Assembly: GCA_017534945.1 (NCBI GenBank)
Contig: JAFXVB010000023.1
Span: forward strand, 1-58,385
Reading direction: 5' to 3'
From: Alphaproteobacteria bacterium
GTDB lineage: Bacteria > Pseudomonadota > Alphaproteobacteria > Rs-D84
DNA length: 58,385 bases
The notes under the pieces were generated by a model. The model did no database searches, had not been told where the DNA came from, and saw only the letters and a program-made list of their open reading frames with translations. The position numbers and the translations under genes are program-made. Of the stretch, positions 24,754 through 42,274 are shown in pieces (the stretch's first letter is position 1; the number at the start of each line of letters is the position of its first letter).

Positions 24754-25713
24754 TTATACTACTTCGGTCACAGCACGCAAACCACCGTCGCGCGATAATT
24801 GTACCACACGAATTTTCTTTTTCATCTCTTGAATTAAATCTGCGCGGTTATATGCGGGTTGTGTATGTAAAATTCTGTCTGCAAACGCGGCGTATGCGGC
24901 CTCGGCTGATTCTGCGTGAATAGTGGTGTAAAAATGGTCGTGTCCTGTGCCCAACATTTCCCACAAAACCGAAGCATTACTTGTTGAAATTTCACCGCCA
25001 ATAATAACATCCGGGGTCATACGAACAACCAAGTCCAATAATCGTGCATAATCAAAATCATTATTTTGTTCAGTGCGCGACAATATAAAATGCACACGAT
25101 TTTGTTGTGCCACATGAATTTCGCGTGCATCTTCGACGGTAATAATGCGCGCGTTTTGATCGATTAATGTCAACATATGGTTCAAGAAAGTTGTCTTACC
25201 GGTTGCTGTTGCACCACTAATCAATATAGGACTTGCATCATTTATTGCGTGCATCAATCGGTCATACGGATCGTCTGGACGTACTTTTTCGCGTGGTTTA
25301 ATTTTTAACAATTGTTTTCCATGTTCCAAATGATAGTTTTTAAAACTGACATCTGTTGCGCCACCACCACGAATACTCATTGCGACGCCGCCAGTTAAAT
25401 CATTGTCATCATATTGTACATTTGGACCGGCAATTGCAGAAAACCTGTGGTTCCCAGGCAATGTGGCATAAACAACCGGCACACCATGATACGGATCAAA
25501 TGGTTGTTCATAAATATTTGCCACAGTATGAATTAAATCCACCAAATATTGTTTGGAAAGTTGTGGCGCAGAATAAGCAACCCATGGCACGCGCGCACCA
25601 TGCAAACGCATCCATACCTGGCCCGCATGATTTATTGCGATTTCTTCTACAAAAGACGGAGTATAAAATTCCGCCAAAGGTTTTAATAAAGAATCAAGAA
25701 CTACATTTGTCAT
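24754..25713 (-). CDS. virB11: VirB11-family secretion ATPase
   Basis: EEIAIN, ISGATATGKTTF, ITVEDARE, RMTPDVIIGGE, TTIHA. Confidence 0.85.
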   Translation of the reverse strand: MTNVVLDSLLKPLAEFYTPSFVEEIAINHAGQVWMRLHGARVPWVAYSAPQLSKQYLVDLIHTVANIYEQPFDPYHGVPVVYATLPGNHRFSAIAGPNVQYDDNDLTGGVAMSIRGGGATDVSFKNYHLEHGKQLLKIKPREKVRPDDPYDRLMHAINDASPILISGATATGKTTFLNHMLTLIDQNARIITVEDAREIHVAQQNRVHFILSRTEQNNDFDYARLLDLVVRMTPDVIIGGEISTSNASVLWEMLGTGHDHFYTTIHAESAEAAYAAFADRILHTQPAYNRADLIQEMKKKIRVVQLSRDGGLRAVTEVV

Positions 25714-25796
25714 TTTATTTTTATTTTATCATAAATCGCCCCTTGAATCAAAAAACTTTATTTGCTAGAATAAAAATATAGATAAGAGAAAGAGAA

Positions 25797-29305: not shown

Positions 29306-30872
29306 GGACTTTACTCCCAAAACTTTACCTACGAATCTGGAAGCCGAACAAGCGGTGTTGGCGGCTGTGTTGATGAATAATCGTGCTTTGGAAAAAGTCG
29401 GTGATTTTTTAAAACCCGAACACTTTTCACATCCTGCACACCAAGAAATTTATAAATTGGCATTGCGTCGTTTTGCGGCGGGCGTTCCTTTTGATATCAT
29501 TACGGCCAAAGATTATTTGACGCAACAGGGGACATTGGAAACCGTCGGTGGCATTAATTATTTGACTGAATTGTCTTCTGCTGGGGCGACGGTGGTAAAT
29601 GTTGAACAATATGGTCGAATTGTTTACGAAAACGCAATGCGCCGTCAATTGATTGCGCTGGGGCAATCAATTATGGATGATGCGTATGTTGAAAACCTAG
29701 ATAATCCTGTGGCGCGCCAATTGGAATGTGCGGAACAAAAATTGTTTGATATGGCGTCTGTTGGGGTTGCCGAACATGAACCTGCAACAATTGGTGTGGC
29801 ATTGCAAAGCGCATTGGAAGAAGCGCAAATTGCATACAAGGCCGATGGAAAATTATCGGGTTTAACCACTGGACTTACCAATTTGGATAAATCAATCAGT
29901 GGTTTGCATCACTCGGATTTAATTATTATTGCGGGTCGTCCTGCGATGGGTAAAACCACATTGGCGATGAATATCGCATTTAATGCGGCAAACGCAATTA
30001 TGACGGGACGCGCGAATAATCAATACAAAGGTGTGGTTGCGTTTTTCTCACTTGAAATGTCCGCATCACAATTGGCAACACGTGTTTTATCGTCCCAGAC
30101 AAAAATTCCGGCAACATCTATGCGTGAAGGTTCGTTGACTGATGAAGAATTTTTAAAAATGTCCCAATATTCCAAGGCAATCGCGCAAACGCCATTGGTT
30201 ATTGATGATACGGCGGGTATGTCTGTGCCTATGATTCGCACGCGTGCGCGGCGATTGGCGCGTAAATACGGTGGAATTGCATTGATTGTCATTGATTACC
30301 TGCAATTGATGATGTCGCCCGGTGGCAAACGAAGTGAAAATCGTGTCCAAGAATTGTCCGAAATTACTCGCGGTTTAAAAATGTTGGCCAAAGAGTTAGA
30401 TGTTCCTGTGATTGCATTGTCTCAATTATCACGCAGTGTTGAAATGCGTGATGATAAACGACCACAATTGGCGGATTTGCGTGAATCTGGATCAATTGAA
30501 CAAGATGCCGATATTGTTATGTTCACATATCGTGAAGAATACTATTTGGACAATCGTGATCCATCACAACGCATTTCTAATACAACATCACAAAACAGTG
30601 TTGAAACATGGCAAAGACGGCTTGAACGCGCCCGGGGCAAGGCGGATGTGATTATCGGTAAAAACCGTCATGGCCGACCCGAAACGGTTCGTTTGGCGTT
30701 TCTGGGTGATTATTGCCTGTTTGATAATTTGGATGAAATGGCGGAACGCAATACCGCACCATTACCCGGTGATTTCGCAGATACAGGCATCCCTGAACAA
30801 CATAATATTGTGCCAAATGACGATAATATTGGTGTTGATGTGTCCGCGATTCCTGATGATATACCATTATAA
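29304..30872 (+). CDS. dnaB: replicative DNA helicase, host type
   Basis: LPTNLEAEQAVL, AGRPAMGKT, FSLEMS, IDYLQL, LSQLSR, DLRESGSIEQDAD. Confidence 0.97.
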   Translation: MDFTPKTLPTNLEAEQAVLAAVLMNNRALEKVGDFLKPEHFSHPAHQEIYKLALRRFAAGVPFDIITAKDYLTQQGTLETVGGINYLTELSSAGATVVNVEQYGRIVYENAMRRQLIALGQSIMDDAYVENLDNPVARQLECAEQKLFDMASVGVAEHEPATIGVALQSALEEAQIAYKADGKLSGLTTGLTNLDKSISGLHHSDLIIIAGRPAMGKTTLAMNIAFNAANAIMTGRANNQYKGVVAFFSLEMSASQLATRVLSSQTKIPATSMREGSLTDEEFLKMSQYSKAIAQTPLVIDDTAGMSVPMIRTRARRLARKYGGIALIVIDYLQLMMSPGGKRSENRVQELSEITRGLKMLAKELDVPVIALSQLSRSVEMRDDKRPQLADLRESGSIEQDADIVMFTYREEYYLDNRDPSQRISNTTSQNSVETWQRRLERARGKADVIIGKNRHGRPETVRLAFLGDYCLFDNLDEMAERNTAPLPGDFADTGIPEQHNIVPNDDNIGVDVSAIPDDIPL

Positions 30873-30949
30873 TTTTCTGTACAGATTTTACTTGCCAAGT
30901 ATTTAAAAATTGACTAAACTTTTGTCAAGTATTCCAAGGAGTCAATAAT

Positions 30950-31957
30950 ATGGCACAAGAAGAAATCATTTTTCCAAATAATATACGAACAATCCGTTTG
31001 AACAACGGCATGAAAATGACGGAACTGGCGCGTAAGACCGGTTTAAGTTTGTCTGCTGTATCAAAAATAGAAAAGGGTGTTCGTCGTTTAAACCAAAAAC
31101 AGTTATTAAACATCTGCAATATTTTGGGTTGCAAACTGTCTGACATTTTCATCAAAGAATCTGATGCGGTTGCTGATAAATGGCAAACTGAAATTAAACG
31201 CCGTTTGAACGATAACGAACATGGCGGGTTAAAGGTTTTTGGTTCTGGATTGCGTAAAATCCGTCAATTACAGGGCAAAACCATTGCCCAGGCGGCCAAA
31301 GATGCCGGTATGACTTTATCTGTGTACCATAAAATTGAGATTGGCCAACGCGAAATTTATAAAAACGAAGTTGAACCTTTGGCAAAATCTTTTGCTTTAT
31401 CCGCCGAAGGCATGTTCGATAAAATCGCAAATCTTTATAAATCTGGCGAATTAACCAAACAGATAAACAAGGTCAAAGAACGTGTTAAATCTGTTTTGAT
31501 TCCTGATAATCCTGTATCTGGTATTGATATGCATGATGGATTATATGGTGCGAAATTATATGACAGTGCGCGCCGAAAATTGGTACCGGTGTTTGGGTCG
31601 CCTGCGGGTCGTGCAATTTCCTTTAAAAGAAATGATAAGGTTATGATTGTCGCGCCGGCATCACTTGAAGGTCGCAAATCAATTTACGCTGTTATTCCAA
31701 ATTCAAAACGCACAGGTGGTTTTATTCCTGAAAAATCGTATGTGTTTGTTGATGCAATGCAACCGGCCAATGCGGGTGATTTGGCATTATGTTTTGATGC
31801 TGATTTTGCAAAATTGGGTGCCGAAGATGTCATCAATGCTCAACTTGCGATTATACATGCCGATGCCAAGGGCAAATTATACGGCGCGATTGTTGACCCT
31901 CAGGAAAAAATTTACGCCAAAACCATGCATCGTGTTGTTTTGATTTTGACCGAATAA
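30950..31957 (+). CDS. XRE-family regulator with two HTH domains and a C-terminal S24-like region
   Basis: IRTIRLNNGMKMTELARKTGLSLSAVSKIEKG; LRKIRQLQGKTIAQAAKDAGMTLSVYHKIEIG. Confidence 0.85.
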   Translation: MAQEEIIFPNNIRTIRLNNGMKMTELARKTGLSLSAVSKIEKGVRRLNQKQLLNICNILGCKLSDIFIKESDAVADKWQTEIKRRLNDNEHGGLKVFGSGLRKIRQLQGKTIAQAAKDAGMTLSVYHKIEIGQREIYKNEVEPLAKSFALSAEGMFDKIANLYKSGELTKQINKVKERVKSVLIPDNPVSGIDMHDGLYGAKLYDSARRKLVPVFGSPAGRAISFKRNDKVMIVAPASLEGRKSIYAVIPNSKRTGGFIPEKSYVFVDAMQPANAGDLALCFDADFAKLGAEDVINAQLAIIHADAKGKLYGAIVDPQEKIYAKTMHRVVLILTE

Positions 31958-31980
31958 TAATTTGATGGAGGGGGAAAAAC

Positions 31981-32640
31981 ATGAAACCAAAAGCAAATCT
32001 TGTCGCACAAAGATTGGTTAACCTGTATCGTCAAGAACACGTAATTCTGGGCGGATGGGCTGCGTTAAACCCTATCTTTGTTAATGAAGCCACCGAAGAT
32101 GTCTTGATTGAAATGGCGGATTTGCCGACGGGTAAAATGTTGGTTCAGCACATTAAAAATTTGCGCAGTGGAAAAACCCCTATGGATTCGATTGACCGAA
32201 ATCTTTTGCCATATGGCGGTTTGATGGCGGAATCTGCGGTTACCATGCCATTGGATGAAAAACAATGGATTGATTTAGAAAACGCAATCAATAATTTTAC
32301 ACCAACTCAACAAGGTTTAATTGATTTACAAAAATTGGATATCATCAAAAGATTTGGTGACGAATGGTTGGTTGCAATTAAAACAATTTTATCTGGTCGT
32401 CCTGAATTATTACCAAAATGGAAAATTGTCATGCAAACATATCGCGCATATCATTTGTGGGATATGGCGACCCAAATTATAAATCAACCATTAACAGAAC
32501 GTGCGCGCGCACAAATTCAGGCTGATATGCCTGAATATGAAACTTTTTTGCCTATGTTCGCAGATGAAGGTAAAAAATTATTAGAACGTCTGCGTACATT
32601 TATGAAGGAAACCAAACACCCAGATACCCAACAAGATTAA
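31981..32640 (+). CDS. hypothetical protein
   Basis: GGAGGGG SD; 219 aa. Confidence 0.75.
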   Translation: MKPKANLVAQRLVNLYRQEHVILGGWAALNPIFVNEATEDVLIEMADLPTGKMLVQHIKNLRSGKTPMDSIDRNLLPYGGLMAESAVTMPLDEKQWIDLENAINNFTPTQQGLIDLQKLDIIKRFGDEWLVAIKTILSGRPELLPKWKIVMQTYRAYHLWDMATQIINQPLTERARAQIQADMPEYETFLPMFADEGKKLLERLRTFMKETKHPDTQQD

Positions 32641-33254
32641 TCGTCATCATCGCTTGTTCTGTATATTGTATCCATTGTATGCGGGGTTCCAATATAAATC
32701 ATTGTGCCGTTTGGTGATAAAATAAAATCCAATTCTCGTAATTTTTCGCGTAATGCTTCGCGCTTTTGTGGGGTGTTGGAAGTATTTGGAACTTCCACAT
32801 CATCGCATATTATTAAATCTGCGCGCATACCGGTAATATTGCCATGTATTCCTTGGCAAATAACAGACGGTTCACGAATCCCAATTGGACGATTTATTGT
32901 TATTTTATCATTTGCCCACTCTTTTTTTGGATTTGGAACCATATCGAAACACAGCGGATGGTTTTCTAATATATTTTTAATATGTTGAACCATGCGTGCC
33001 GCCAATACAGTATGTGCCGACAAAACCAATATTCTGGTTTTTGGACGTAAATATAAAATATACGCCGCAAATATTCCAACAATGGTAGATTTACCAGAAT
33101 GTCGAAACGCCATCAACAAACCTCTATGATTTGGTGATTGCCATACATCATACAAAAAATTTAACATATCTTTGTGGTGTTTTGGTGTTTTATATCCCAA
33201 AATATCATTCCAAGAATCAGCAAATTGGTGGACTTGTGTAAGCATTTTATCCAA
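32637..33254 (-). CDS. terminase large subunit, N-terminal ATPase half
   Basis: LMAFRHSGKST (Walker A), ADLIICDDVE (Walker B), IYIGTPH. Confidence 0.88.
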   Translation of the reverse strand: MDKMLTQVHQFADSWNDILGYKTPKHHKDMLNFLYDVWQSPNHRGLLMAFRHSGKSTIVGIFAAYILYLRPKTRILVLSAHTVLAARMVQHIKNILENHPLCFDMVPNPKKEWANDKITINRPIGIREPSVICQGIHGNITGMRADLIICDDVEVPNTSNTPQKREALREKLRELDFILSPNGTMIYIGTPHTMDTIYRTSDDDD

Positions 33255-33594
33255 CTATATCATCAACTCGTGAAAGTAATTTTTTCAATAAATTTGGTTT
33301 GTTTGTTTTTATATTTTTTAATTTTTCTAAATTATCCTTTTTTTTATCTTCAAAAGATTGTGCTGTTTCATCCCGCATACGACGCAAAACCGCGCCTGTC
33401 ATAGTGTTGGACGCGGATACGCCACTGGCGCCGTATTTGGCGCGTTGCGAAGCCAATGCTTTTTTTATTAAATTAGTTTTATTTTGTTCGTCATTTGCTA
33501 TTTTTTGCAAAATTTCCTGACGTTGGTTATTTGCAGATTTTTTTGTTTTTTGATAATTCAAAATTTCGTTAACATCGGATACCAATTGTCCCAT
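33247..33594 (-). CDS. phage virion protein (internal-virion-like)
   Basis: ALASQRAKYGASGVS motif; position after tail tubular B. Confidence 0.55.
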   Translation of the reverse strand: MGQLVSDVNEILNYQKTKKSANNQRQEILQKIANDEQNKTNLIKKALASQRAKYGASGVSASNTMTGAVLRRMRDETAQSFEDKKKDNLEKLKNIKTNKPNLLKKLLSRVDDIVG

Positions 33595-33612
33595 TTTTAT
33601 CTCCTTTTTGTA

Positions 33613-35325
33613 TTAAATTTCGTATTGTCCATAAATTGTCACAGAAAAAACTGTAATCGGCATAGGTTCATCGCCATGTAATGTCCACAGTGGTGTTGAT
33701 TCATCTATTTGTGAACCCAACATATTCATAGATATATCACCAGAAAATCCTGGGGATGACGGCAAATAAACTTCGTTTGGTAATTCAATACGCATATTGT
33801 TTATAAAAGCGCTTTTGGTATTCATCAAACGTAAACTTATTTTGCGCAGACGTAAATGTACCGGACGATGTCCAGAAAAATTCATAGGCACCCCCGATGC
33901 ACTAAATTCAATTTTATAAGTTGTTGAATCTGTCAAAGCAGTATGCGAAAATTTTGCCAGTTTATATGTGCTATTGTTTTCTATAATAACAAAAGTTTCG
34001 CCGCCACTGATTGCCACAGATGTAAATTTTCCGTATGTTGTATATCGTGCCCATGCAGAAATCCCAAGATTAGTGTTTTGGTTTAATACGGCTATATCGC
34101 CATTTTTATTCACAATATACAACTGTTTTGATACTTTGTTATATGCAATATCTGTTGGTTCATTAATCAAGTGTTTGGCAAAAATACATAAGTCATCAGC
34201 GTTATATTTATCACCCAAAGTATCCAAAGATAATTTACGAATATCTTTCATAGTATTGGATACAAAAACAGTTTCGCCTTCGATTTTTTGTGGCGTCAAC
34301 GAATATCCTGTGACACTTCCAACTGTTGTATGCTGTTTGATGTTTATATTGGATGGGGTAAGTGGTTGATTGGCGATTGCCCATTCTCCATGTGATGTTA
34401 AGACCTGTAATTTATCGCTACTGATTAAATTACATATTTCTTGTCTTTCTTTGGATAATAATGTTGTTGTAATTGCTTCGTCATCTAAGCCTGTGCCGGC
34501 ATTAAAATTATGGTGTTCACCTGTTTGTGACATCCAAATACCACCGGGATTATAATATGTGCCACCAAATACCAATCTATCTTGGTGAAAAGTCACAGAA
34601 CGTGGCCATCCATGACGCGAATCAAACGCACTTTCTAACCAATCAGTAATAGCGGTTCCTGGTAAAGTATATTCTTCCACACTTTTAGCATAGACCACAG
34701 TTGGATTGACATATTCAATAATTTCCCATGTTTGATTTCCAAATTGCACAATTGTTCCAACATTTGATGATGTCCAATAATTGCCAGATGCAGTAAATAC
34801 CGCAGACATTGACCCATATGGGCCACTGGTAAGTGTGATTGAAATGCCGCGCATTTCATCATATTTCATTAAAGGAAATTGTGGGTATATTCCTGTGGAG
34901 TCATAAAAACTGAATATCCCCAAAGAAAAACTGTTGCCACTTTTTGTTAAAATATATGGGCAAATATCCGGATGAACAAAAATCATAGAATCACCACGAC
35001 CTGTGAATTGTATTTTTGATAAAGATTCCGTTGACCATGGCGATACTAATGTTTGCACTAATGTATCATTGGAATAAATTGATACTGTAAAATTAGTAAA
35101 TACCAATATATAATTTTCTTGTTGTGAAATATCAAACGAAAATATACGTGCCGCACCAGATAATACAGCAACATCAACCAATCCCGGACGTAATGTCAAT
35201 CCGCCACCGGCCAATACATCCATGTTTTCCAAATGTGCCAACCCAGATATATTTTTGTTCAAGTAAAATTCAGGTGCAATTTCACCATTTGCAAAAGAAT
35301 TTTGTGTATGTATAAATTCTGTCAT
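33613..35325 (-). CDS. tail tubular protein B / stabilisation protein
   Basis: QNSFANGEIAP, GWPRSVTFHQDRLVFGG, WMSQTG. Confidence 0.85.
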   Translation of the reverse strand: MTEFIHTQNSFANGEIAPEFYLNKNISGLAHLENMDVLAGGGLTLRPGLVDVAVLSGAARIFSFDISQQENYILVFTNFTVSIYSNDTLVQTLVSPWSTESLSKIQFTGRGDSMIFVHPDICPYILTKSGNSFSLGIFSFYDSTGIYPQFPLMKYDEMRGISITLTSGPYGSMSAVFTASGNYWTSSNVGTIVQFGNQTWEIIEYVNPTVVYAKSVEEYTLPGTAITDWLESAFDSRHGWPRSVTFHQDRLVFGGTYYNPGGIWMSQTGEHHNFNAGTGLDDEAITTTLLSKERQEICNLISSDKLQVLTSHGEWAIANQPLTPSNINIKQHTTVGSVTGYSLTPQKIEGETVFVSNTMKDIRKLSLDTLGDKYNADDLCIFAKHLINEPTDIAYNKVSKQLYIVNKNGDIAVLNQNTNLGISAWARYTTYGKFTSVAISGGETFVIIENNSTYKLAKFSHTALTDSTTYKIEFSASGVPMNFSGHRPVHLRLRKISLRLMNTKSAFINNMRIELPNEVYLPSSPGFSGDISMNMLGSQIDESTPLWTLHGDEPMPITVFSVTIYGQYEI

Positions 35326-35340
35326 AACATACCTCCTTTT

Positions 35341-35859
35341 TTAAAATCTGGCATTAATCAAAGAAAATTGCTCTATCCCAGAATTTATATCTGTGGTGGA
35401 ATCTATAAACTTTGCATTTTGAAATTCTGCTTCATATAAATTGATAAGTGTTCTTAACATTTGTTGACTGCCGGTAAGTGGTATACAAAATTCTATCGCT
35501 AATTTAGTAGCAGCCAACGCAACAAAATAACTTGGAAATTTTTCTGTGCTTACACGCATAATGGCCATCATTTGAACATTATCTGTATTTGCACAAATTT
35601 GATTTCCATATATTCGACCATTACAATGCAAAATCCTTAGTACATTTTCAGGAATAATAAATTCATTGTCTTGATTTTTTTCAATTGATAAATTTTGTGT
35701 GGCGAAACGCCATGGATGATTTGACAACAAAGCATCAATTACTATGTCATATAATGTTCTGGCTAATTGTGCAGAAGCACTGTCTGTATTAAGTGATACC
35801 AACGGTTTTTCGCCCAACTTTAACAATGCCATAGAACATAAATCTAATTTCGTAAGCAT
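35341..35859 (-). CDS. tail tubular protein A / adaptor
   Basis: LDLCSMALLKLGEKPLVSL, HPWRFA, FPSYFV.LAA.KLA. Confidence 0.85.
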   Translation of the reverse strand: MLTKLDLCSMALLKLGEKPLVSLNTDSASAQLARTLYDIVIDALLSNHPWRFATQNLSIEKNQDNEFIIPENVLRILHCNGRIYGNQICANTDNVQMMAIMRVSTEKFPSYFVALAATKLAIEFCIPLTGSQQMLRTLINLYEAEFQNAKFIDSTTDINSGIEQFSLINARF

Positions 35860-35875
35860 ATTTATCCTTTTTAGT

Positions 35876-35906
35876 AAAAAGATAGTGGGACAAATATCCC
35901 ACTATC
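35876..35906 (-). terminator. terminator after the capsid genes
   Basis: GATAGTGGGA-caaata-TCCCACTATC plus T5 on the minus strand. Confidence 0.7.
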
Positions 35907-35932
35907 ATATTAAGTTTGTTTTATAGTTTATA

Positions 35933-36163
35933 TTAAGACAATGCATCTACTGTCACAGTATCGCTTGCTACTGCTATTGTCATGATGGATGTGCCGTCTG
36001 ACGCATTGATTATGATAATATCGCCAGTATTCATTAATGTCGCAACATTGTTGAAATACCCACTCGCAGAAATTGCGGTCAATGTTTCATCCGCGGCATA
36101 GTGCCACAAAGTAAAACCATTTGCATACGCAATTACAGATAATTTTTTATTTTGAAATGCCAT
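35933..36163 (-). CDS. small phage protein after the capsid gene (decoration-like)
   Basis: LSVIAYANGFTLWHY...GYFN...GDIIII. Confidence 0.7.
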   Translation of the reverse strand: MAFQNKKLSVIAYANGFTLWHYAADETLTAISASGYFNNVATLMNTGDIIIINASDGTSIMTIAVASDTVTVDALS

Positions 36164-36202
36164 CTGTTTTCCTTTTGGTTATTTGTTTTATATAGAGTGT
36201 TG

Positions 36203-37024
36203 TTATGCGTTATCTTTACATTTAAGACGAACGATTCCATCTTGATCAATCAAGACTGCGCCTTGGGACATGCTGTTGCTAATAAAGTGCGCCGCACGTT
36301 CACCATGCCAAGTAATATCTGTTTTGACTTCTTGACCGCATGCATGACCAATACTGGACGCATGATATATAAAGCAACTGCGTTCTGTTGTATTGCTTAA
36401 CGGCAAATCATTGTGCAAAACCCATGTGATGCCCAACCATTTTCTGGCTTCATAACCTTTGACCATTGGATTGTCGCCAACATAATCTGCTGACACAAAT
36501 TCAGTAATGCCCAACAATTCGTTCCATTGATGAACACCAACAACACCGAATCTGCGGCCATCATCTGGAACATCTTTTTCGTTTAATTTTTCGATTGCTT
36601 GCAAAATCATCGATTTGCTTAAACCGGCTGAAAAGTTGCCAACATATGCGGTGGCACCGTTCATTGCATCAATAATTAATTCATCTGTTTTGCGACCCAA
36701 TGCATACGCACCAGCCGAAGCAACAACACGACGTTCATCAATATTGGTTTTCAATTCATCCAAACTATCAACCCAATCACCAGCATAGTAATCCTGTAAA
36801 ACACATTCCACAGGTTGATGATTCAAATTCATAACTGGCACAATACCATGTCTGGATTTTGTGCTGGCGGTGCCGCGTCCAATTGTTTGGAAAGTTGTAG
36901 ATTGTCCCACAACACCAGATTTGCTGCGAATTGTAGAACGTAATTTTGTGCCCATTTGCTGATAAGCCAAATGAACATCTGCTTCAAATTGTTTCACAAA
37001 AACTTGATCGATAGAAACAGACAT
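36203..37024 (-). CDS. major capsid protein
   Basis: IDQVFVKQFEADVHLAYQQMGTKLR, YAGDWVDSLDELK, AYALGRKTD; AAGGA SD. Confidence 0.88.
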   Translation of the reverse strand: MSVSIDQVFVKQFEADVHLAYQQMGTKLRSTIRSKSGVVGQSTTFQTIGRGTASTKSRHGIVPVMNLNHQPVECVLQDYYAGDWVDSLDELKTNIDERRVVASAGAYALGRKTDELIIDAMNGATAYVGNFSAGLSKSMILQAIEKLNEKDVPDDGRRFGVVGVHQWNELLGITEFVSADYVGDNPMVKGYEARKWLGITWVLHNDLPLSNTTERSCFIYHASSIGHACGQEVKTDITWHGERAAHFISNSMSQGAVLIDQDGIVRLKCKDNA

Positions 37025-37207
37025 ATTTATTCCTTTTGTTAAATTAAAAAAAACATGGTGCAAAAAATTGCACCGACCAAAGATTGATTTTTGTTTTTTT
37101 GATTATGCAAACATAACATTTGCGTCATATAACAAAATGCGGGGTCTGTAAAAGATTGTCCTGCAACAGTTTTAGTTAGACTAATTATTCATCTAACTAA
37201 AATTATT

Positions 37208-37233
37208 AAAAAACCCGCAATTTCTTGCGGGTT
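37208..37233 (-). terminator. terminator after the histone-like gene
   Basis: AACCCGCAA/TTGCGGGTT plus T tract. Confidence 0.75.
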
Positions 37234-37254
37234 AAATTGACTTAAAAGAAAATA

Positions 37255-37575
37255 TTATTTTCTTTTTGCCGCTTTTTTGCATGCGCATTTTTTCGCAGGT
37301 GCTTTTTTAGCAACAGCTTTCTTAGCAACTGGTTTTTTTGCAGCAACTTTTTTAACCGCTACTTTCTTAGCAGCTGGTTTTTTAGCAACTACTTTTTTTG
37401 CAACTGGTTTTTTCGCAGCAACTTTTTTTGCAGGTGCTTTTTTTGCAACTGGTTTTTTAGCAGCTGGTTTCTTTGCAGCTACTTTTTTAGCAGCTGGTTT
37501 TTTTGCTGCAGGTTTTTTAGCAGCAGGTTTAGCGGCAGGTTTAGCAGCTTTTTTTGCTGAAAATAAGAATGCCAT
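37255..37575 (-). CDS. histone H1-like (HC2/AlgP-type) Lys/Ala-rich protein
   Basis: KKPAA/KKVAA pentapeptide repeats; AGGAG SD; TGGACT-17-TAGAAT promoter at 37629-37657. Confidence 0.85.
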   Translation of the reverse strand: MAFLFSAKKAAKPAAKPAAKKPAAKKPAAKKVAAKKPAAKKPVAKKAPAKKVAAKKPVAKKVVAKKPAAKKVAVKKVAAKKPVAKKAVAKKAPAKKCACKKAAKRK

Positions 37576-37686
37576 TCTTCTCTCCTTTTTATGTTTTGGA
37601 TAGAACAAATTTTTTTGTTCTTACTTATATTCTATATGAAAAGAAAATAAGAGTCCAGAAAAAATTATTTTTTTATTTAATTTTTT

Positions 37687-38355
37687 TTAATTTTTTTCAT
37701 TTGAATATAATTTTTTAAAACCATTTTCAATTTTACGAACATATTCAGGATCCGCATCACGCCAATATTTTGGATCGCGCATCATGCGTCTTAAATCTGC
37801 GTCTGTTAAATTTTCTTGCACATCAATATTTGTTTCGATGTGTGGTTCCATTGATTGCATCATCGCGTACACACCTTGGATTCCGCTGGCGCTGGAACAT
37901 AATGATTCAAATGCATCGTGTGGTAAAAATTTTTCACCAAATGTATTTATCGCAGATAAAGCATCGTTCATTTTATCGCGTGACCCAAAAAATTTTTCCA
38001 ATTTTGAAATTTCATCTGTTTCATTTTTAACAGAAAATAATTCTGTGATGACGGGTGATAAAAATTCTTCTGCTACGGAATAAATTTGTTCAACTTGATG
38101 TGATGTTAATCCCATATCATGAAATTTTTGTTTAATCGATTCGTCATCGAACAAATCATTTTTTGGATAATCATCCGCATTTTCTGGCACACCAATTGCA
38201 CGATTAAATTTTTCGCGCGTGACTTTATCGTCATCATTATGTGGCACAGATATCATACCACCAATTTTCTTTTCCAATTCATTATAAGATTTTAATAACG
38301 CATCAACATTGGTTGTGCCATCATCGTTTTGAAATTTTTCTGGTACTTTTTGCAT
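37687..38355 (-). CDS. capsid assembly (scaffold) protein
   Basis: VPEKFQNDDG..NVDALLKSYNELEKKIG; MMRDPKYWRD. Confidence 0.8.
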   Translation of the reverse strand: MQKVPEKFQNDDGTTNVDALLKSYNELEKKIGGMISVPHNDDDKVTREKFNRAIGVPENADDYPKNDLFDDESIKQKFHDMGLTSHQVEQIYSVAEEFLSPVITELFSVKNETDEISKLEKFFGSRDKMNDALSAINTFGEKFLPHDAFESLCSSASGIQGVYAMMQSMEPHIETNIDVQENLTDADLRRMMRDPKYWRDADPEYVRKIENGFKKLYSNEKN

Positions 38356-38557
38356 TTGTTCTCCTTTTTGTATCCTTTGATTTACGCAAGAAATAAATTC
38401 CGCCAAGTGTGAATACAGATTGCATGGTCATAAACAAATCTGCATCGCCAACTAAATAAGCCGCGATGGCGGATAAAATTCCAACGCCTGATAATATATA
38501 TGTTCTGTGTCCGGCCAAGAATCCGCCATGAATAATTTTTTGTATTTTCATTTCCAT
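38321..38557 (-). CDS. putative holin
   Basis: GFLAGHRTYILSGVGILSAIAAYLVG; two TM segments and a basic tail. Confidence 0.55.
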   Translation of the reverse strand: MEMKIQKIIHGGFLAGHRTYILSGVGILSAIAAYLVGDADLFMTMQSVFTLGGIYFLRKSKDTKRRTNAKSTRKISKR

Positions 38558-38564
38558 TTTTCCA

Positions 38565-38975
38565 TTACAAGTAAAATAACAATCCATCTAATTCCAAAAT
38601 ATATCCGCGTGCAATTGACCAAGATGGATTTAATTCTGTCCTATGAAATTTAGTCGCACCAAAACAACAATCTTCCAGATTGTGTTTTAACATTTTATCA
38701 ACAACGCGCGCACACATTTGAAAGGTTCGTGCGTTTGTGTTGACACCTAATAAATCATGACGTTTTGATTTTTTATTCAAAGATTCAAACAATCCAGATT
38801 CCATAACGAAATCCAATTCGGTTTGATTATTGACACGTGCACCATTTACAATCATCGATGCCAAAGCTTCGACCACGCGTAAAGATTGTGCGCATGTTTC
38901 CGCGTAAACAACGCGTGATATTTTATATACATCTGGATTAAAATCATTTTGATGTTTGATTAATGGCAATTGCAT
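38565..38975 (-). CDS. SleB/CwlJ-like cell wall hydrolase (endolysin-like)
   Basis: ISRVVYAET, GATKFH, PSWS, GLLFY. Confidence 0.7.
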   Translation of the reverse strand: MQLPLIKHQNDFNPDVYKISRVVYAETCAQSLRVVEALASMIVNGARVNNQTELDFVMESGLFESLNKKSKRHDLLGVNTNARTFQMCARVVDKMLKHNLEDCCFGATKFHRTELNPSWSIARGYILELDGLLFYL

Positions 38976-39001
38976 TGCGAATACCCTTTGGTTTAAAACA
39001 T

Positions 39002-39028
39002 AAAAAAAGCGCACATAAAAATGTGCGC
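39002..39028 (-). terminator. terminator in the leader of the phage-like operon
   Basis: GCGCACAT-tttt-ATGTGCGC followed by T7. Confidence 0.75.
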
Positions 39029-39093
39029 AAATTAAAAAAGGTAAAAAAAATCACGTCATTCGACGCGCAGATTTCTCCCTCTTGATGCTGTAC

Positions 39094-39122
39094 ATTATAT
39101 CACAAATCGCAACATAAGTCAA
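39094..39122 (-). promoter_or_regulatory. consensus sigma70 promoter
   Basis: TTGACT-17 bp-TATAAT on the minus strand. Confidence 0.75.
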
Positions 39123-39127
39123 GTGGT

Positions 39128-39808
39128 TTATATCATGATTTCATCACCATACGCCAAAACATATCGTGTGCCACACCTTAATACCAATGCACCATTTTCG
39201 TTTATGCCCATCAATTGTGCGGTTGCACCACGATATTTTACAGTTGTATTTAATCCTGTCGCCATAGACATCCATCTTTCGCGCACAATTGCAAAGTCCG
39301 CCTTTATCCATTTATCCAGATATTTCATCAATCGTGTCAAAACATCTTTTTCATTTACCATAACGAAATCATTGACCTTGGTTGTTTTATATTCAGCAAC
39401 ACTAGGATTTGTTGCAACATTGATTCCAATTCCAACAACAACAAATCTTCCATAGTATTCAATTAAAATCCCAGAAATTTTTTTATCATCAACCAATATA
39501 TCATTTGGCCATTTTATAGTCGGTACAATTCCAAAAGAAAACAAAGTATCTGCAACCGCAATTGCCACAGCATAAGACAATCGTGCATCGCGTTCTTCAC
39601 ATCCATAAATAAAACTGGCATACAAATTTCCATGATGCGAAACCCATTTGCGCCGAAAACGTCCACGTCCGGCACTTTGTGCCGCAGCAACAATGGCGGT
39701 GTGATCACCGGCACGATGCTCTGCAATCATAGTTGTTGCCATGGTTTGCGTGCTGGGGATTTTATCAAAAGAAAATACTTTATACAGAGCCAATTTTATA
39801 AACCCCAT
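39128..39808 (-). CDS. birA: biotin-protein ligase (no HTH)
   Basis: QSAGRGRFRRKW, IKWPNDI, KISGIL, GIGINV; start uncertain. Confidence 0.92.
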   Translation of the reverse strand: MGFIKLALYKVFSFDKIPSTQTMATTMIAEHRAGDHTAIVAAAQSAGRGRFRRKWVSHHGNLYASFIYGCEERDARLSYAVAIAVADTLFSFGIVPTIKWPNDILVDDKKISGILIEYYGRFVVVGIGINVATNPSVAEYKTTKVNDFVMVNEKDVLTRLMKYLDKWIKADFAIVRERWMSMATGLNTTVKYRGATAQLMGINENGALVLRCGTRYVLAYGDEIMI

Positions 39809-40199
39809 CTTTTAATATTATAAAATCACGTCCACACAATTTGCGCAAATCGTAAATTGCATTTTCAATCGTATGCACAGATGCCGGCAAATGTTCCAAT
39901 GTTGACTTTAATTCTGGGCCTGTCATACCACCACCGCGCCGTAATGCCACAATGATACCCTGTTGAATATTTGATAATTGTGGTATTTTATTACCAAACA
40001 CAGATTTTAAAATTCGTGTGTTGTCGGCATGTTGAACAATCAAAGATTTCAATTGTTCGGGGGATATTGCCGCGGGCAGGGGAATATTATCCAAATTTAC
40101 ATCCAATACATTTGGTGTATCCAACACAGTCGCCCCAAGCGACAATAAAATGTGGCGCCATGTGGAATCACTGGAAAAAACCCGAATGCCATTTAACAT
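39780..40199 (-). CDS. hypothetical protein with a C-terminal winged-helix-like domain
   Basis: HTIENAIYDLRK...GVYKI. Confidence 0.6.
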   Translation of the reverse strand: MLNGIRVFSSDSTWRHILLSLGATVLDTPNVLDVNLDNIPLPAAISPEQLKSLIVQHADNTRILKSVFGNKIPQLSNIQQGIIVALRRGGGMTGPELKSTLEHLPASVHTIENAIYDLRKLCGRDFIILKDGVYKIGSV

Positions 40200-40319
40200 A
40201 TTTTTAGGATAGCAAAAAAAAGGCACAAGTCTATAAAAAACGCATGAAACAGTATTGCATTTTTATTTTCTGGGTGCTACACTTTCCCGCGTATAAATAA
40301 AGAGAAAAAAGGATAACAT

Positions 40320-41561
40320 ATGTATATACTTGCTTTGAACTGCGGTTCTTCTTCATTAAAATATCAGGTTTTTGATGCCGACACCAAAGAACCTTTGGTT
40401 TCTGGAAATGTTGAAAAGATAGGATTGCCGGATTCTTTCGTGACTCAAAAGTATCCAGATGGCGAAAAAATTCGCAAAGATGTTTCTATGGCTGATCATA
40501 ATCAGGCTTTAAATGTCGTAATCGGTTTATTGCGTGAGGCTTCCATAGACATCAGTAAAATTGCCGGTGTTGGTCATCGTGTTGTGTTGGGTGGTGAAAA
40601 ATTTGCGAACTCTGTTGAAATCACAGACGAAGTTATTCAAAAAATTGATGAATTATCAATGATTGCACCATTGCACAATCCTGCGGCTTTGGTTGGAATT
40701 ATGGCGGCAAAACAATTATTGCCAAACGCGACCCAGGTTGCTGTGTTTGATACTGCATTTTATAACACTTTACCTGATTATGCATATCGTTATGCTGTGC
40801 CGGCGGCATGGTATCGTGAACTTGGTGTTCGTCGTTACGGTTTTCATGGAACATCACATTTGTATGTTTCAAAGCGCGCGGCGGCGCTTTTGGGAAAGCC
40901 TGCAAAAGATTGTAATTTGATTACATTGCACATTGGATCTGGGGCTTCGGCTGCGGCGATTAAAAATGGTGTTGCGGTGGATACATCATTGGGTATGACA
41001 CCGGTTGCGGGTTTGGTCATGGGAACACGCCCGGGCGATTTGGATGCCGGTGTTGTGTTATATGTAATGCAAAGATTGGGACTGACCCCGGAACAAATGC
41101 AAAAACATTTGAACAAAGATTCTGGACTGTTGGGTGTGACCGAATGTTTTGCTGACCGTCGTGATGTAGAGGCAAACAGGGAAACAAAACCAGAATGCCA
41201 ATTGGCAATTGAAATGGAGGCACACGCCGTCCGCAAATACATTGGCGCATTTTTGGCAGAATTGGGTCATGTTGATGCAATCGTATTTACCGCCGGTGTG
41301 GGTGAAAACGATGATTATTTGCGCGCACAATTTTGCAAGGGTTTGGAACCTTTGGGAATTAAACTGGACCCAGAAAAAAATGCCGCGGCATTGGCACGCA
41401 AAGGTGTTGAAAGTGCGATTATCAGCACAGACGACAGCCCGATTAAAATCATTATGGTTGCAACCAATGAAGAATTGGTTATTGTCGAAGATACATTGGC
41501 AATCATGAACGGTACATATAATCCAGATCACCTTAAAATGGATTATTCCTTTGCAAAGTAA
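40320..41561 (+). CDS. ackA: acetate kinase
   Basis: LNCGSSSLK, GHRVV, APLHNP, FDTAF, RYGFHGTSH, FTAGVGEN, TNEEL. Confidence 0.97.
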   Translation: MYILALNCGSSSLKYQVFDADTKEPLVSGNVEKIGLPDSFVTQKYPDGEKIRKDVSMADHNQALNVVIGLLREASIDISKIAGVGHRVVLGGEKFANSVEITDEVIQKIDELSMIAPLHNPAALVGIMAAKQLLPNATQVAVFDTAFYNTLPDYAYRYAVPAAWYRELGVRRYGFHGTSHLYVSKRAAALLGKPAKDCNLITLHIGSGASAAAIKNGVAVDTSLGMTPVAGLVMGTRPGDLDAGVVLYVMQRLGLTPEQMQKHLNKDSGLLGVTECFADRRDVEANRETKPECQLAIEMEAHAVRKYIGAFLAELGHVDAIVFTAGVGENDDYLRAQFCKGLEPLGIKLDPEKNAAALARKGVESAIISTDDSPIKIIMVATNEELVIVEDTLAIMNGTYNPDHLKMDYSFAK

Positions 41562-41608
41562 ATAATTTTTAAATGTAATGGTATTTGCCGACAGAAATGT
41601 CGGCATTT

Positions 41609-42274
41609 TTATTTCTTTAATTTGCGTAATATTTTCTTTTGTGCATCTGTAATGCGATATGATTCAATTGCTTTTTGAATTGTTTTATTACGTGTCCAAT
41701 CGTCTAATTTGTTTAAATATAAAATCGCATCATCCCAATTTGTTGCCAAAGCCGTTGCGAAATACCATGCGCGCATCATATTGATATAGTATTCATCACT
41801 ATGCACATTGGCAACCATATCGACGTATTCATTGTGAAATGCGTCTTTGAGATAATATCGCATCAATAACCCAATTGCAAATCGCACAGTAAAGACATGT
41901 TTTGATTTTATCCATTTATAAATATATGGTTTTAATCTGTCTGTATTTTTCGCAAACACGCGCGGTATTAATTGATCGCAAGTTGCCCAATTATCAATAT
42001 ATGGCAAAAAAGATTCAACCAATATAACACATTTATCAAAATCATTTATTCCCGATAATATAAATGCATGAATTTGATTTTCTTCAAAATAAAAGTGAGG
42101 CAGTTCACATAAAAACTCATCTGCATTTGAAAAGTTTTTTGCATATTTGCGTAAAATTGGTGTTTTAACGCCAATCACACGCTTGGCATCAATATTTGGT
42201 ATTAATCCAGCATTAAATTTTGCGAACTTTTCATCGCGCATATCCAACAAATCAAAATAAACTTTATCATTCAT
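41609..42274 (-). CDS. DNA alkylation repair protein (AlkD-like)
   Basis: IDNWATCD, EYYINMMRAWYFATAL, NKTIQKAIESYRI. Confidence 0.88.
   Translation of the reverse strand: MNDKVYFDLLDMRDEKFAKFNAGLIPNIDAKRVIGVKTPILRKYAKNFSNADEFLCELPHFYFEENQIHAFILSGINDFDKCVILVESFLPYIDNWATCDQLIPRVFAKNTDRLKPYIYKWIKSKHVFTVRFAIGLLMRYYLKDAFHNEYVDMVANVHSDEYYINMMRAWYFATALATNWDDAILYLNKLDDWTRNKTIQKAIESYRITDAQKKILRKLKK

Follow-up and report, generated by a model that had tools for sequence, protein, structure and literature searches.

How does transcription reach the structural genes of a phage-like cluster when its main promoter is followed at once by terminators? The question is raised by a 58,385-nt contig (JAFXVB010000023.1, positions 1 to 58,385 of the forward strand; hereafter the window) of assembly GCA_017534945.1, from an alphaproteobacterium of the Rs-D84 lineage with a genome of 0.909 Mb (assembly about 90% complete), in which lysis, head and tail genes are read from the minus strand behind a near-consensus sigma-70 promoter. 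The initial annotation of positions 35,876 to 39,122 had suggested an antitermination switch. We found evidence compatible with a terminator-locked late operon, in which initiation is constitutive, termination is the default, read-through is conditional and processive, and the regulon is dispersed over the genome, a reading to which we give a probability of about one half. From the sequence we infer that the hairpins would terminate in vivo, that read-through would be conditional and that a dedicated factor would exist. The cluster itself appears to encode a domesticated podovirus-like particle, recognised here from gene content, conservation and the dispersal of fibre genes.

The promoter and leader of lys

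The promoter that the initial annotation placed at 39122-39094 on the minus strand, TTGACT-17-TATAAT, is present, matches the consensus at 11 of 12 positions and has an extended -10 element, its spacer holding a conserved GATTTGTGa (the TRTG of the extended -10, ending in TGa). It is the best promoter-like site within 30000-42000 and, with 37.6 bits on its own position-specific scoring matrix (PSSM), the top match of the genome. From its position, transcription is predicted to start at about 39087-39086 (-), and two intrinsic terminators follow before the first gene, the endolysin-like lys (Table 1). The first of these, T1, begins about 20 nt past the predicted start (~39086) and has a folding energy (dG) of -6.8 with 7/8 T; the second, T2, has a dG of -12.0 with 7/8 U, inside the range of the genome's convergent gene-end terminators (n=71). 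A single leader terminator, giving an RNA of about 85 nt, had been annotated: the hairpin with seven T at 39028-39002 is indeed there and is our T2, with a predicted default RNA of ~84 nt, but T1 (39067-39043), which would give an RNA of ~43 nt, had been overlooked. The lys ATG at 38975 lies 26 nt beyond T2 with the Shine-Dalgarno sequence (SD) in between, leaving, as had been remarked, no space for a second promoter before the first gene.

These hairpins are more frequent than the rest of the genome would lead one to expect. The 3.25 kb contain 4 strict terminator sites on the same strand, where the genome-wide rate predicts 0.45 (Poisson P=1.2e-3), terminator-like sites in 30000-42000 number 19, against 10.7 +/- 3.2 in shuffled sequences, and the 121-nt lys leader folds with z=-3.55 against shuffles. 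In all five elements of the cluster (T1, T2 and three internal hairpins) the hairpin is directly followed by a U-run, as in intrinsic terminators, and the dG of T2, of the HC2 terminator and of the g76 terminator is comparable to that of the 71 convergent gene-end terminators of the same genome. Since 71 of the 253 strict terminator-like sites found genome-wide lie at convergent gene ends (49 lie between co-directional genes), the hairpin with a T-run appears to serve as a terminator in this bacterium.

The layout is kept in relatives. The capsid region (10.8 kb) was compared in 40 genomes, of which 20 belong to the same genus, 7 to the family's other genera and 13 to other families. A promoter, a short conserved 5' segment, two hairpins with U-runs and an SD stand ahead of lys in 26 of the 31 loci in which lys was detected, the remaining five having another gene ahead of lys or no match to the promoter pattern; a similar layout was seen in two further families (L060, and L063 by eye). 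Alignment with MAFFT followed by RNAalifold misaligned the hairpins and gave just 3 pairs, and a base-anchored hairpin analysis was used instead. T2 was found in all 26 leaders bearing the promoter (25 distinct sequences, mean dG -13.2) and T1 in 21 loci, each with a different sequence (mean dG -8.2). All but two of the leader hairpin sequences differ, GC, CG, AU and UA pairs are seen at each stem position, and the mean pairwise identity between loci is 0.41 for the T2 arm, compared with 0.71 for the promoter. Because pairing is kept though the stems differ between loci, the hairpins have been kept by selection while their sequence turned over.

The gene directly upstream is birA, a host gene which in most genomes lacks a terminator of its own before the lys promoter, and T1 and T2 are hence predicted to end birA transcripts as well. 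One locus (L033) has a separate terminator before the promoter yet keeps both T1 and T2, and the 26 leaders include three (L033, L056 and L057) in which the upstream gene is not birA; the upstream gene differs at L060 and L063 as well. In four genomes that have lost the structural module (G058, G082, G084 and G106) ordinary sequence without a leader follows birA. As the leader is missing next to birA in these genomes, an independent small RNA (sRNA) tied to birA is unlikely: the leader follows lys when the upstream gene changes, and is linked to the cluster, contrary to the refuting case that the initial annotation had named, a conserved sRNA with no link to the cluster. This supports the leader terminators being a selected feature tied to the cluster. 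In three of the four genomes (G058, G082 and G106, contigs C14, C1 and C8, loci L114-L116, belonging to three genera) birA and a 219-aa gene lie 1-4 kb apart on the same contig, so the whole module, from lys to terminase N, was lost by excision from between this one pair of host genes. G106 still has a Lys/Ala-rich HC2-like gene there, on the opposite strand, and in G084 birA and the 219-aa gene are on separate contigs. A further genome (G075, contig C7, L113) has a capsid pseudogene (a 72-aa match with two stops) together with an intact promoter, T1, T2, lys, mem and scaffold gene, and fibres of the RRGT type (see below) persist, so that it looks like a cluster caught in early decay.

Two other signals in the leader were considered and set aside. 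T1 (39052-39067, minus strand) contains a 3-codon mini open reading frame (ORF), ATG ACG TGA, with AGGGAG before it; comparable ATG...TGA mini-ORFs are confined to the nearest relatives (L031, L032 and L034), which argues against a leader peptide, and the mini-ORF is probably a by-product of the stem sequence. A boxA-like GCTCTT proved on inspection to be on the wrong strand. The promoter spacer GATTTGTGA is conserved, though its TRTG occurs also in housekeeping promoters, and no convincing -10-like pause element was seen in the initial transcribed region of the lys leader.

Internal terminators and the pre-capsid leader RNA

The three hairpins with T-runs that had been annotated inside the cluster (37233-37208, 37074-37046 and 35906-35876) are all present, and the proposal that they act as serial terminators of one switch holds in part. 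All are conserved in position, but the one at 37233-37208 is the end of a separately promoted HC2-like gene, which in most family loci is followed by one or two terminator sites, and the one between g76 and tail tubular A occurs at the same place in an outgroup, the faecal contig MT838907.1. Lying between the capsid gene and the tail tubular genes, the g76 terminator has the position of Tφ in T7; it is found in 21 loci, no two of which have the same stem (mean dG -15.9), looks ancestral, and is probably a partial terminator setting the head:tail ratio.

The remaining hairpin stands directly before the capsid gene. In 32 of 41 loci a hairpin with a T-run was found to end at a distance of 17-57 nt (mode 30-33) from the capsid ATG, upstream of it, all 32 stems being different, and in the window the stem ends about 33 nt before the ATG, with room for an SD only. 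In the Enterousia family this terminator (P3) closes a structured leader, at ~37203-37046, formed by a long hairpin A, two irregular helices with conserved bulges (P1 and P2) and the terminator itself. The proportion of paired cells in the MAFFT alignment is 90.6%, compared with 24-44% for slid partners, 17 of 20 pairs show changes on both sides, and the covariation score is 0.50, against 0.24 in shuffled alignments (0/500 reach 0.50) and 0.06-0.15 with slid partners, the structure having been derived from the same alignment on which pairing was counted. P1 (helices 1-2) is paired in 87-91% of cells with both-side changes in 6/7 pairs, and the P2 core (helices 3-4) in 96-99% with both-side changes in 5/7; by eye, P2 is probably extended outwards by UUUUGUU (37137-37131) pairing with AACAAAA (~37093-37087), and the stem of hairpin A, as read from the alignment, covaries between genomes (TCAGTC/GACTGA, TCAATC/GATTGA, TTAGTT/AACTAA). 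The P1-P2 motif has a single copy in the genome and is restricted to one family of the order. Searches of the lys and pre-capsid leaders against Rfam, at the gathering threshold and at E<=10, gave chance-level matches only. The P1-P2-terminator leader is, in our view, a new structured RNA motif with good support, and could be proposed as an Rfam family.

No conserved pairing between the 3' side of P2 and the 5' arm of the terminator was found (duplex test mean z -0.86, significant in few genomes), so the pre-capsid leader is not a textbook riboswitch platform; a riboswitch or classical attenuator was likewise rejected for the lys leader, which consists of tandem terminators with only a short 5' segment and offers no competing antiterminator pairing. 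A local promoter was rejected too. Nothing resembling a sigma-70 promoter is conserved directly before the capsid gene, where CATAAT occurs in the closest relatives only and CATAAC elsewhere, and a promoter for an extracytoplasmic-function or other alternative sigma factor was rejected because the genome has just two sigma-70-family genes, RpoD and one of RpoH size. With no conserved local promoter and only two sigma factors, capsid transcription must come from upstream by read-through. In another family (f3, L058-L063) a conserved -10-like TTAATTATACTTT followed by two tandem hairpins with T-runs precedes the capsid gene, that is, the lys-leader design applied to the capsid gene itself in place of the P1-P2 leader.

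Dispersed units and neighbouring genes

The design of the lys leader recurs elsewhere in the genome. There are 9 same-strand tandem terminator pairs, and 3 of the 9 come directly behind a TTGAYT-17-TGnTATAAT promoter, with a gene following; the 29-nt promoter PSSM has about 11 matches at >=18.8 bits in 0.9 Mb. Beyond lys, units with leader hairpins include three tail-fibre-like paralogues, a transglycosylase/Mu-F-like protein and two operons of methyltransferase (MTase) or defence type (Table 1). The latter, C27:2258-3189(-), with an N6-adenine MTase and a secreted PLD-family nuclease, and C46:1353-4023(-), with a DuOB-like 216-aa protein, a DUF488 protein and a C5-cytosine MTase, may be further members of this regulon, or else parts of other mobile elements using the same logic. 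Across 14 genomes searched with the promoter written as an IUPAC pattern, 13 had 1-11 matches each, and the reversed control had 0 in 14/14. When the downstream region was read at every site, those with a perfect or near-perfect TATAAT and one or two leader terminators were found before lys, two fibre families, a GH24-like lysozyme, a 387-aa protein and a DUF4065-like protein, and those without leader terminators before an abundant outer membrane protein (OMP)-like protein, a lipoprotein and other ordinary genes. The promoter class was therefore rejected as a regulon-specific motif, its architecture being common to housekeeping OMP-like, lipoprotein and rho genes: it is a general strong sigma-70 type, and the terminator lock on phage-derived genes is the special part. 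At rho (L083 in G092, L109 in G093) the same promoter architecture comes with a leader hairpin lacking a clean U-run, possibly the usual Rho autoregulatory leader.

The 5' segment of the lys leader is absent from the other regulon leaders, whose 5' segments are different and much shorter (5-16 nt), except at C45:73760. At this site (C45:73760-75031, plus strand) the same promoter class is followed by the same initial transcribed sequence as in the cluster leader, CATCAAGA[G/C]GG, without a U-run terminator; downstream are genes for proteins of 80 aa and 289 aa, the latter with caspase-like His/Cys motifs SSHGN and GQCFAG, noted by eye.

Fibre genes were seen only where the capsid module is present or was present until recently. 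The MQKVSY-type fibre N-domain was present in 7/7 capsid-positive and 0/5 capsid-negative genomes (Fisher P=0.0013), 4 of the 7 having copies inside the cluster, for which co-loss is trivial. Fibres of the RRGT type were found in five capsid-positive genomes and in G075; they are absent from three capsid-negative genomes, and a fragment remains in a fourth. The two families, MQKVSYMGNGETTEF-type and M.R.LQIRRGT-type, are largely complementary among capsid-positive genomes (G093, G092, G085, G044 and G036 compared with G000, G052, G064 and G034) and often multicopy, which suggests exchange of receptor-binding cassettes.

Within the cluster, the small protein encoded after lys has no family match and is conserved in relatives; its shape and position would fit a holin. 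Of 121 genomes of the order, 110 have the capsid gene, with an intact ORF in 108 of the 110, and the genes are thus presumably expressed at some time; that the structural genes are intact and conserved would also imply a condition in which their expression is high. Portal and terminase pieces lie farther along the cluster. A VirB11-type ATPase gene at 24754-25713 has directly before it, at 25723-25751 (-), a promoter of the general class described above (19.5 bits), without a leader terminator. The closest named relatives of this bacterium are Candidatus Enterousia metagenome-assembled genomes from animal and human guts, and a genomic study of Rs-D84/Enterousia makes no mention of phage genes or gene transfer agents (GTAs).

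Table 1. Features of the particle cluster and of the dispersed units (window coordinates unless a contig is given)
Feature	Position	Strand	Details
Biotin/lipoate-ligase-family host gene (birA)	39808-39128	-	PF03099; ends 5 nt before TTGACT
Near-consensus sigma-70 promoter	39094..39122	-	-35 TTGACT 39122-39117, 17-nt spacer, -10 TATAAT 39099-39094
Unstructured conserved 5' leader segment	39068..39086	-	CATCAAGAGGGAGAAATCT; family consensus CAT[CA]AA[CG]AG..A[AG]ATT (leader alignment)
Leader terminator T1	39043..39067	-	6-bp stem CGCGTC/GACGTG 39067-39052, loop GAAT, then A+T8 39051-39043
Leader terminator T2	39002..39028	-	8-bp stem GCGCACAT/ATGTGCGC, loop TTTT 39028-39009, then T7 39008-39002
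lys, first gene, 136-aa cell-wall hydrolase/endolysin-like	38565..38975	-	PHROG 938 endolysin E=1.7e-7
Small holin-like protein (by position and shape)	38321..38587	-	two hydrophobic segments and charged C-terminus, by eye
T7-type scaffold protein	37687..38355	-	PF05396 E=2.8e-10
HC2 (histone H1-like) Lys/Ala-rich gene between scaffold and capsid	37255..37575	-	PF07382 E=3.7e-15
HC2-gene terminator	37208..37233	-	9-bp stem AACCCGCAA/TTGCGGGTT and T-run; dG -13.6
Long hairpin A, 5' edge of pre-capsid leader	37170..37203	-	TTTTAGTTAGAT...GTCTAACTAAAA
P1 of pre-capsid leader	37142..37162	-	closing GG...CC, 5' AYAA bulge, variable inner stem-loop; RNAalifold
P2 of pre-capsid leader	37087..37137	-	core GG-C-[stem-loop]-AUAA-CC 37127-37100; RNAalifold
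P3, pre-capsid terminator (helix 5)	37046..37074	-	GGTGCAA/TTGCACC and T-run; dG -9.6
Major capsid protein	36203..37024	-	PF19821 E=8e-71
g76, small conserved protein after capsid gene	35933..36163	-	PHROG 18004; tblastn match in pelagiphage EXVC031P
g76/tail tubular A terminator	35876..35906	-	11-bp stem and T5
Tail tubular protein A	35859-35341	-	PHROG 394
Tail tubular protein B	35325-33613	-	PHROG 376
Three tail-fibre-like paralogues	C46:10381, C46:21378, C37:30447		PHROG tail fibre N-domain; two or three leader hairpins with T-run
201-aa transglycosylase/Mu-F-like protein	C43:25762		one leader hairpin with T-run
N6-MTase and PLD nuclease	C27:3161		two leader hairpins with T-run
DuOB-like protein, DUF488, Dcm	C46:3995		two leader hairpins with T-run

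Mechanism, rival explanations and known systems

We propose that the near-consensus promoter of each unit probably fires constitutively and that one or two intrinsic terminators in the first 40-90 nt would make a short RNA the default product (~43 and ~84 nt in the main cluster), with the lysis, head, tail and fibre genes silent by default. Particle production would then need a terminator-resistant RNA polymerase (RNAP) that passes T1/T2 and the HC2 and pre-capsid terminators; the Tφ-like terminator before the tail genes would also be passed, in attenuated form. Since one alternative hairpin cannot neutralise tandem terminators together with others kilobases downstream, a processive modification of RNAP would be needed, and since the same lock stands at many dispersed units, a common trans-acting key could be expected. 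The likeliest means would be a processive antitermination factor of no known family, loaded at or just after the promoters in the manner of lambda Q, AlpA or GafZ. At the last terminator, before the capsid gene, the P1-P2 RNA would provide a second element of control, specific to the cluster. A more specific version, in which a new processive antitermination system with a protein or RNA factor of no known family operates across the Enterousia family on all the podovirus-derived genes (main cluster, fibres, lysozyme and injection protein), at near-consensus sigma-70 promoters locked by tandem leader terminators, with P1-P2 as a put-like or protein-binding checkpoint element in cis, is put forward tentatively, and we would sooner expect it to fail than to hold.

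Several findings weigh against the terminator-locked operon. T1 (dG -6.8) and the pre-capsid hairpin (dG -9.6) have weak stems. The TTG..TRTGnTAnnAT architecture is common to housekeeping genes, so that conservation of the spacer does not have to mean that a factor binds there, and the different regulon leaders have no obvious common RNA motif. The GafA/GafZ- or Q-like factor envisaged by the initial annotation was not found in the genome (DUF6456, PF06530), nor was an AlpA or a second NusG protein, with the limit that such a gene may lie on the missing ~10% of the assembly. The PF06530 search reached only 12.9 bits (E=0.058), a match that turned out to be the helix-turn-helix (HTH) of a serine recombinase (resolvase) on contig C7, while the other lambda Q-type families PF03589 and PF06323 were not searched; no match was obtained for PF20057 (DUF6456), for which the Caulobacter control genome scores, or for PF05930 (AlpA) at E<=0.1; and for the RfaH/LoaP type there was one PF02357 (NusG) match only (C30:45916-46227) in this ~90% complete assembly. 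The 219-aa orphan, which lies in the cluster beside a double-HTH protein, was a candidate by position. It was demoted, as it has no Pfam, PHROG, NCBIfam or Protein Data Bank sequence match and its AlphaFold2 model (pLDDT 82.5) has no fold relative; moreover it is kept in the four module-less genomes, of four genera, and so seems to behave like a host gene.

The absence of an antiterminator homologue would suit a simpler arrangement without any dedicated factor, in which constitutive but leaky attenuation gives low, noisy expression at a fixed ratio, maybe answering to nucleoside triphosphate pools, NusA/NusG or growth rate, with rare bursts producing particles in few cells, little lysis protein and more capsid than tail. 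The weakness of T1 and of the pre-capsid hairpin, the g76 terminator at the stoichiometry-setting Tφ position and in the outgroup, and the frequency of terminators between co-directional genes (49/253) are all in its favour. We nevertheless consider it unlikely, given that tandem strong terminators are kept right behind the promoter at many loci, that housekeeping genes with the same promoter type lack the design, and that the capsid protein, which is needed in the greatest amount, lies behind at least four terminators from the main promoter, the opposite of a stoichiometric dimmer. Control could instead be exerted at initiation, by a repressor such as the XRE-type double-HTH protein (30950-31957) conserved beside the cluster, the leader terminators then being a second lock or insulators against read-in from birA. 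That T1 and T2 would end the transcripts of a birA mostly devoid of its own terminator agrees with such insulation, and the spacer motif ATTTRTG was counted by eye in 22/24 phage-type but in ~7/19 housekeeping sites of the same listing. However, no conserved palindromic operator was seen round the promoters, L033 keeps T1 and T2 despite a separate upstream terminator, genomes without the module keep the neighbouring 219-aa gene, and transcripts from a de-repressed promoter would still be stopped by the terminator downstream of it, so that read-through would call for an explanation all the same; control mainly at initiation is, in our judgement, distinctly unlikely.

Two further explanations concern the RNAs themselves. 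The hairpins could act on RNA fate, as stabilising stem-loops or as RNase sites like those of RNase III between T7 genes, with P1-P2 being a processing site or translational operator; the irregular, bulged helices P1 and P2 do resemble protein or RNase recognition sites, and the lack of a conserved pairing between P2 and the terminator (mean z -0.86) fits as well. A U-run of 5-8 right after every stem is, however, unneeded for processing or stability, and the same class of motif marks convergent gene ends (71/253), so that we find this improbable. A strong promoter, an unstructured 5' segment and terminator hairpins are also common sRNA anatomy, and the short leader RNAs (~43 and ~84 nt, with a conserved 5' seed) might be functional sRNAs, the downstream genes being expressed otherwise; but the leader is missing where the module has been deleted and follows lys rather than birA, the other regulon leaders have different and shorter 5' segments, there is no Rfam match, and another promoter would find no space before lys, all of which renders this very improbable indeed.

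If the terminator-locked operon is true, it would make accessible, from sequence, the way in which a gut symbiont with a reduced genome controls a phage-like particle that is retained by the host and potentially lethal to it. A strong promoter with one or two leader terminators would be a signature with which scattered particle genes (fibres, lysozyme, injection protein) can be found from sequence, an antitermination factor of a new family would be there to be discovered in an uncultured lineage, and terminator locks could be added after domestication. On this last point the phages are informative. Among free-living phages, the HTVC010P-type pelagiphages have the capsid closest to this one, and in one of them, EXVC031P, the scaffold and capsid genes are 39 nt apart and intergenic terminators are absent; the HC2-like gene is not at the scaffold-capsid position in either the pelagiphage or the faecal-contig outgroup. 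As they are absent from the closest phage (two outgroups compared), the tandem leader terminators, the HC2 insertion and P1-P2 look added after domestication. The faecal contig, MT838907.1 (L201), is a 5,084-bp 'Bacteriophage sp.' scaffold from human faeces with 51% GC, carrying scaffold, capsid (62% identity), g76 and tail tubular A/B genes; its source may be a related free phage, or it may be a piece of bacterial or packaged DNA.

Among known systems, one of the closest is the lambda late operon with pR'-tR' (6S RNA) and Q. There an intrinsic terminator stands right behind a strong, constitutive promoter, so that a short RNA is made by default, lysis genes come first and head and tail genes later, and later terminators need processive modification, as is proposed here; the Q binding element has the same place as the conserved promoter spacer here, although the TRTG of this spacer also occurs in housekeeping promoters. 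What differs is that two tandem terminators stand within 85 nt, that the structural genes are T7/HTVC010P-like, that there are many dispersed single-gene units, and that no Q-family protein (PF06530) was found. In Caulobacter crescentus the GTA is controlled by GafY/GafZ and IHF, its promoter has a degenerate -35 and needs GafY and IHF, a terminator follows the first gene, terminators inside the cluster must be bypassed, and a putative GafZ element lies between -35 and -10 (PMC11150451). That system and the present one are both alphaproteobacterial domesticated phage-like particles with a main cluster and accessory loci under common control (proposed here), whereas in the window the promoter is near-consensus (TTGACT/TATAAT, 11/12), the terminators are in the leader, the particle is podovirus-derived rather than RcGTA-like, and DUF6456 is missing. 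In Pseudomonas aeruginosa, the alpBCDE lysis operon is silenced by intrinsic terminators in its leader and freed by AlpA, a processive antiterminator loaded at the promoter; here there is no PF05930 protein, and the regulon is multi-locus and includes structural genes. Lambda Q, AlpA and GafZ all have a loading element between -35 and -10, and here too this spacer is conserved.

The internal elements have other counterparts. The terminator between g76 and tail A stands, like T7 Tφ, after the capsid gene and before tail tubular A/B, yet T7 has its own RNA polymerase and class III promoters, and the parallel with Tφ explains one of the five terminators. The pre-capsid RNA, with two bulged hairpins and a terminator and SD ~20-30 nt later, recalls HK022 put, Bacillus EAR and riboswitch platforms, but differs in having no Rfam match, no alternative pairing, one copy per genome and a range of one family. 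Antitermination of late and GTA genes is thus a known logic, and what we propose as new is the anatomy of the leader, the regulon-wide signature, the structured leader RNA and a factor outside the known families.

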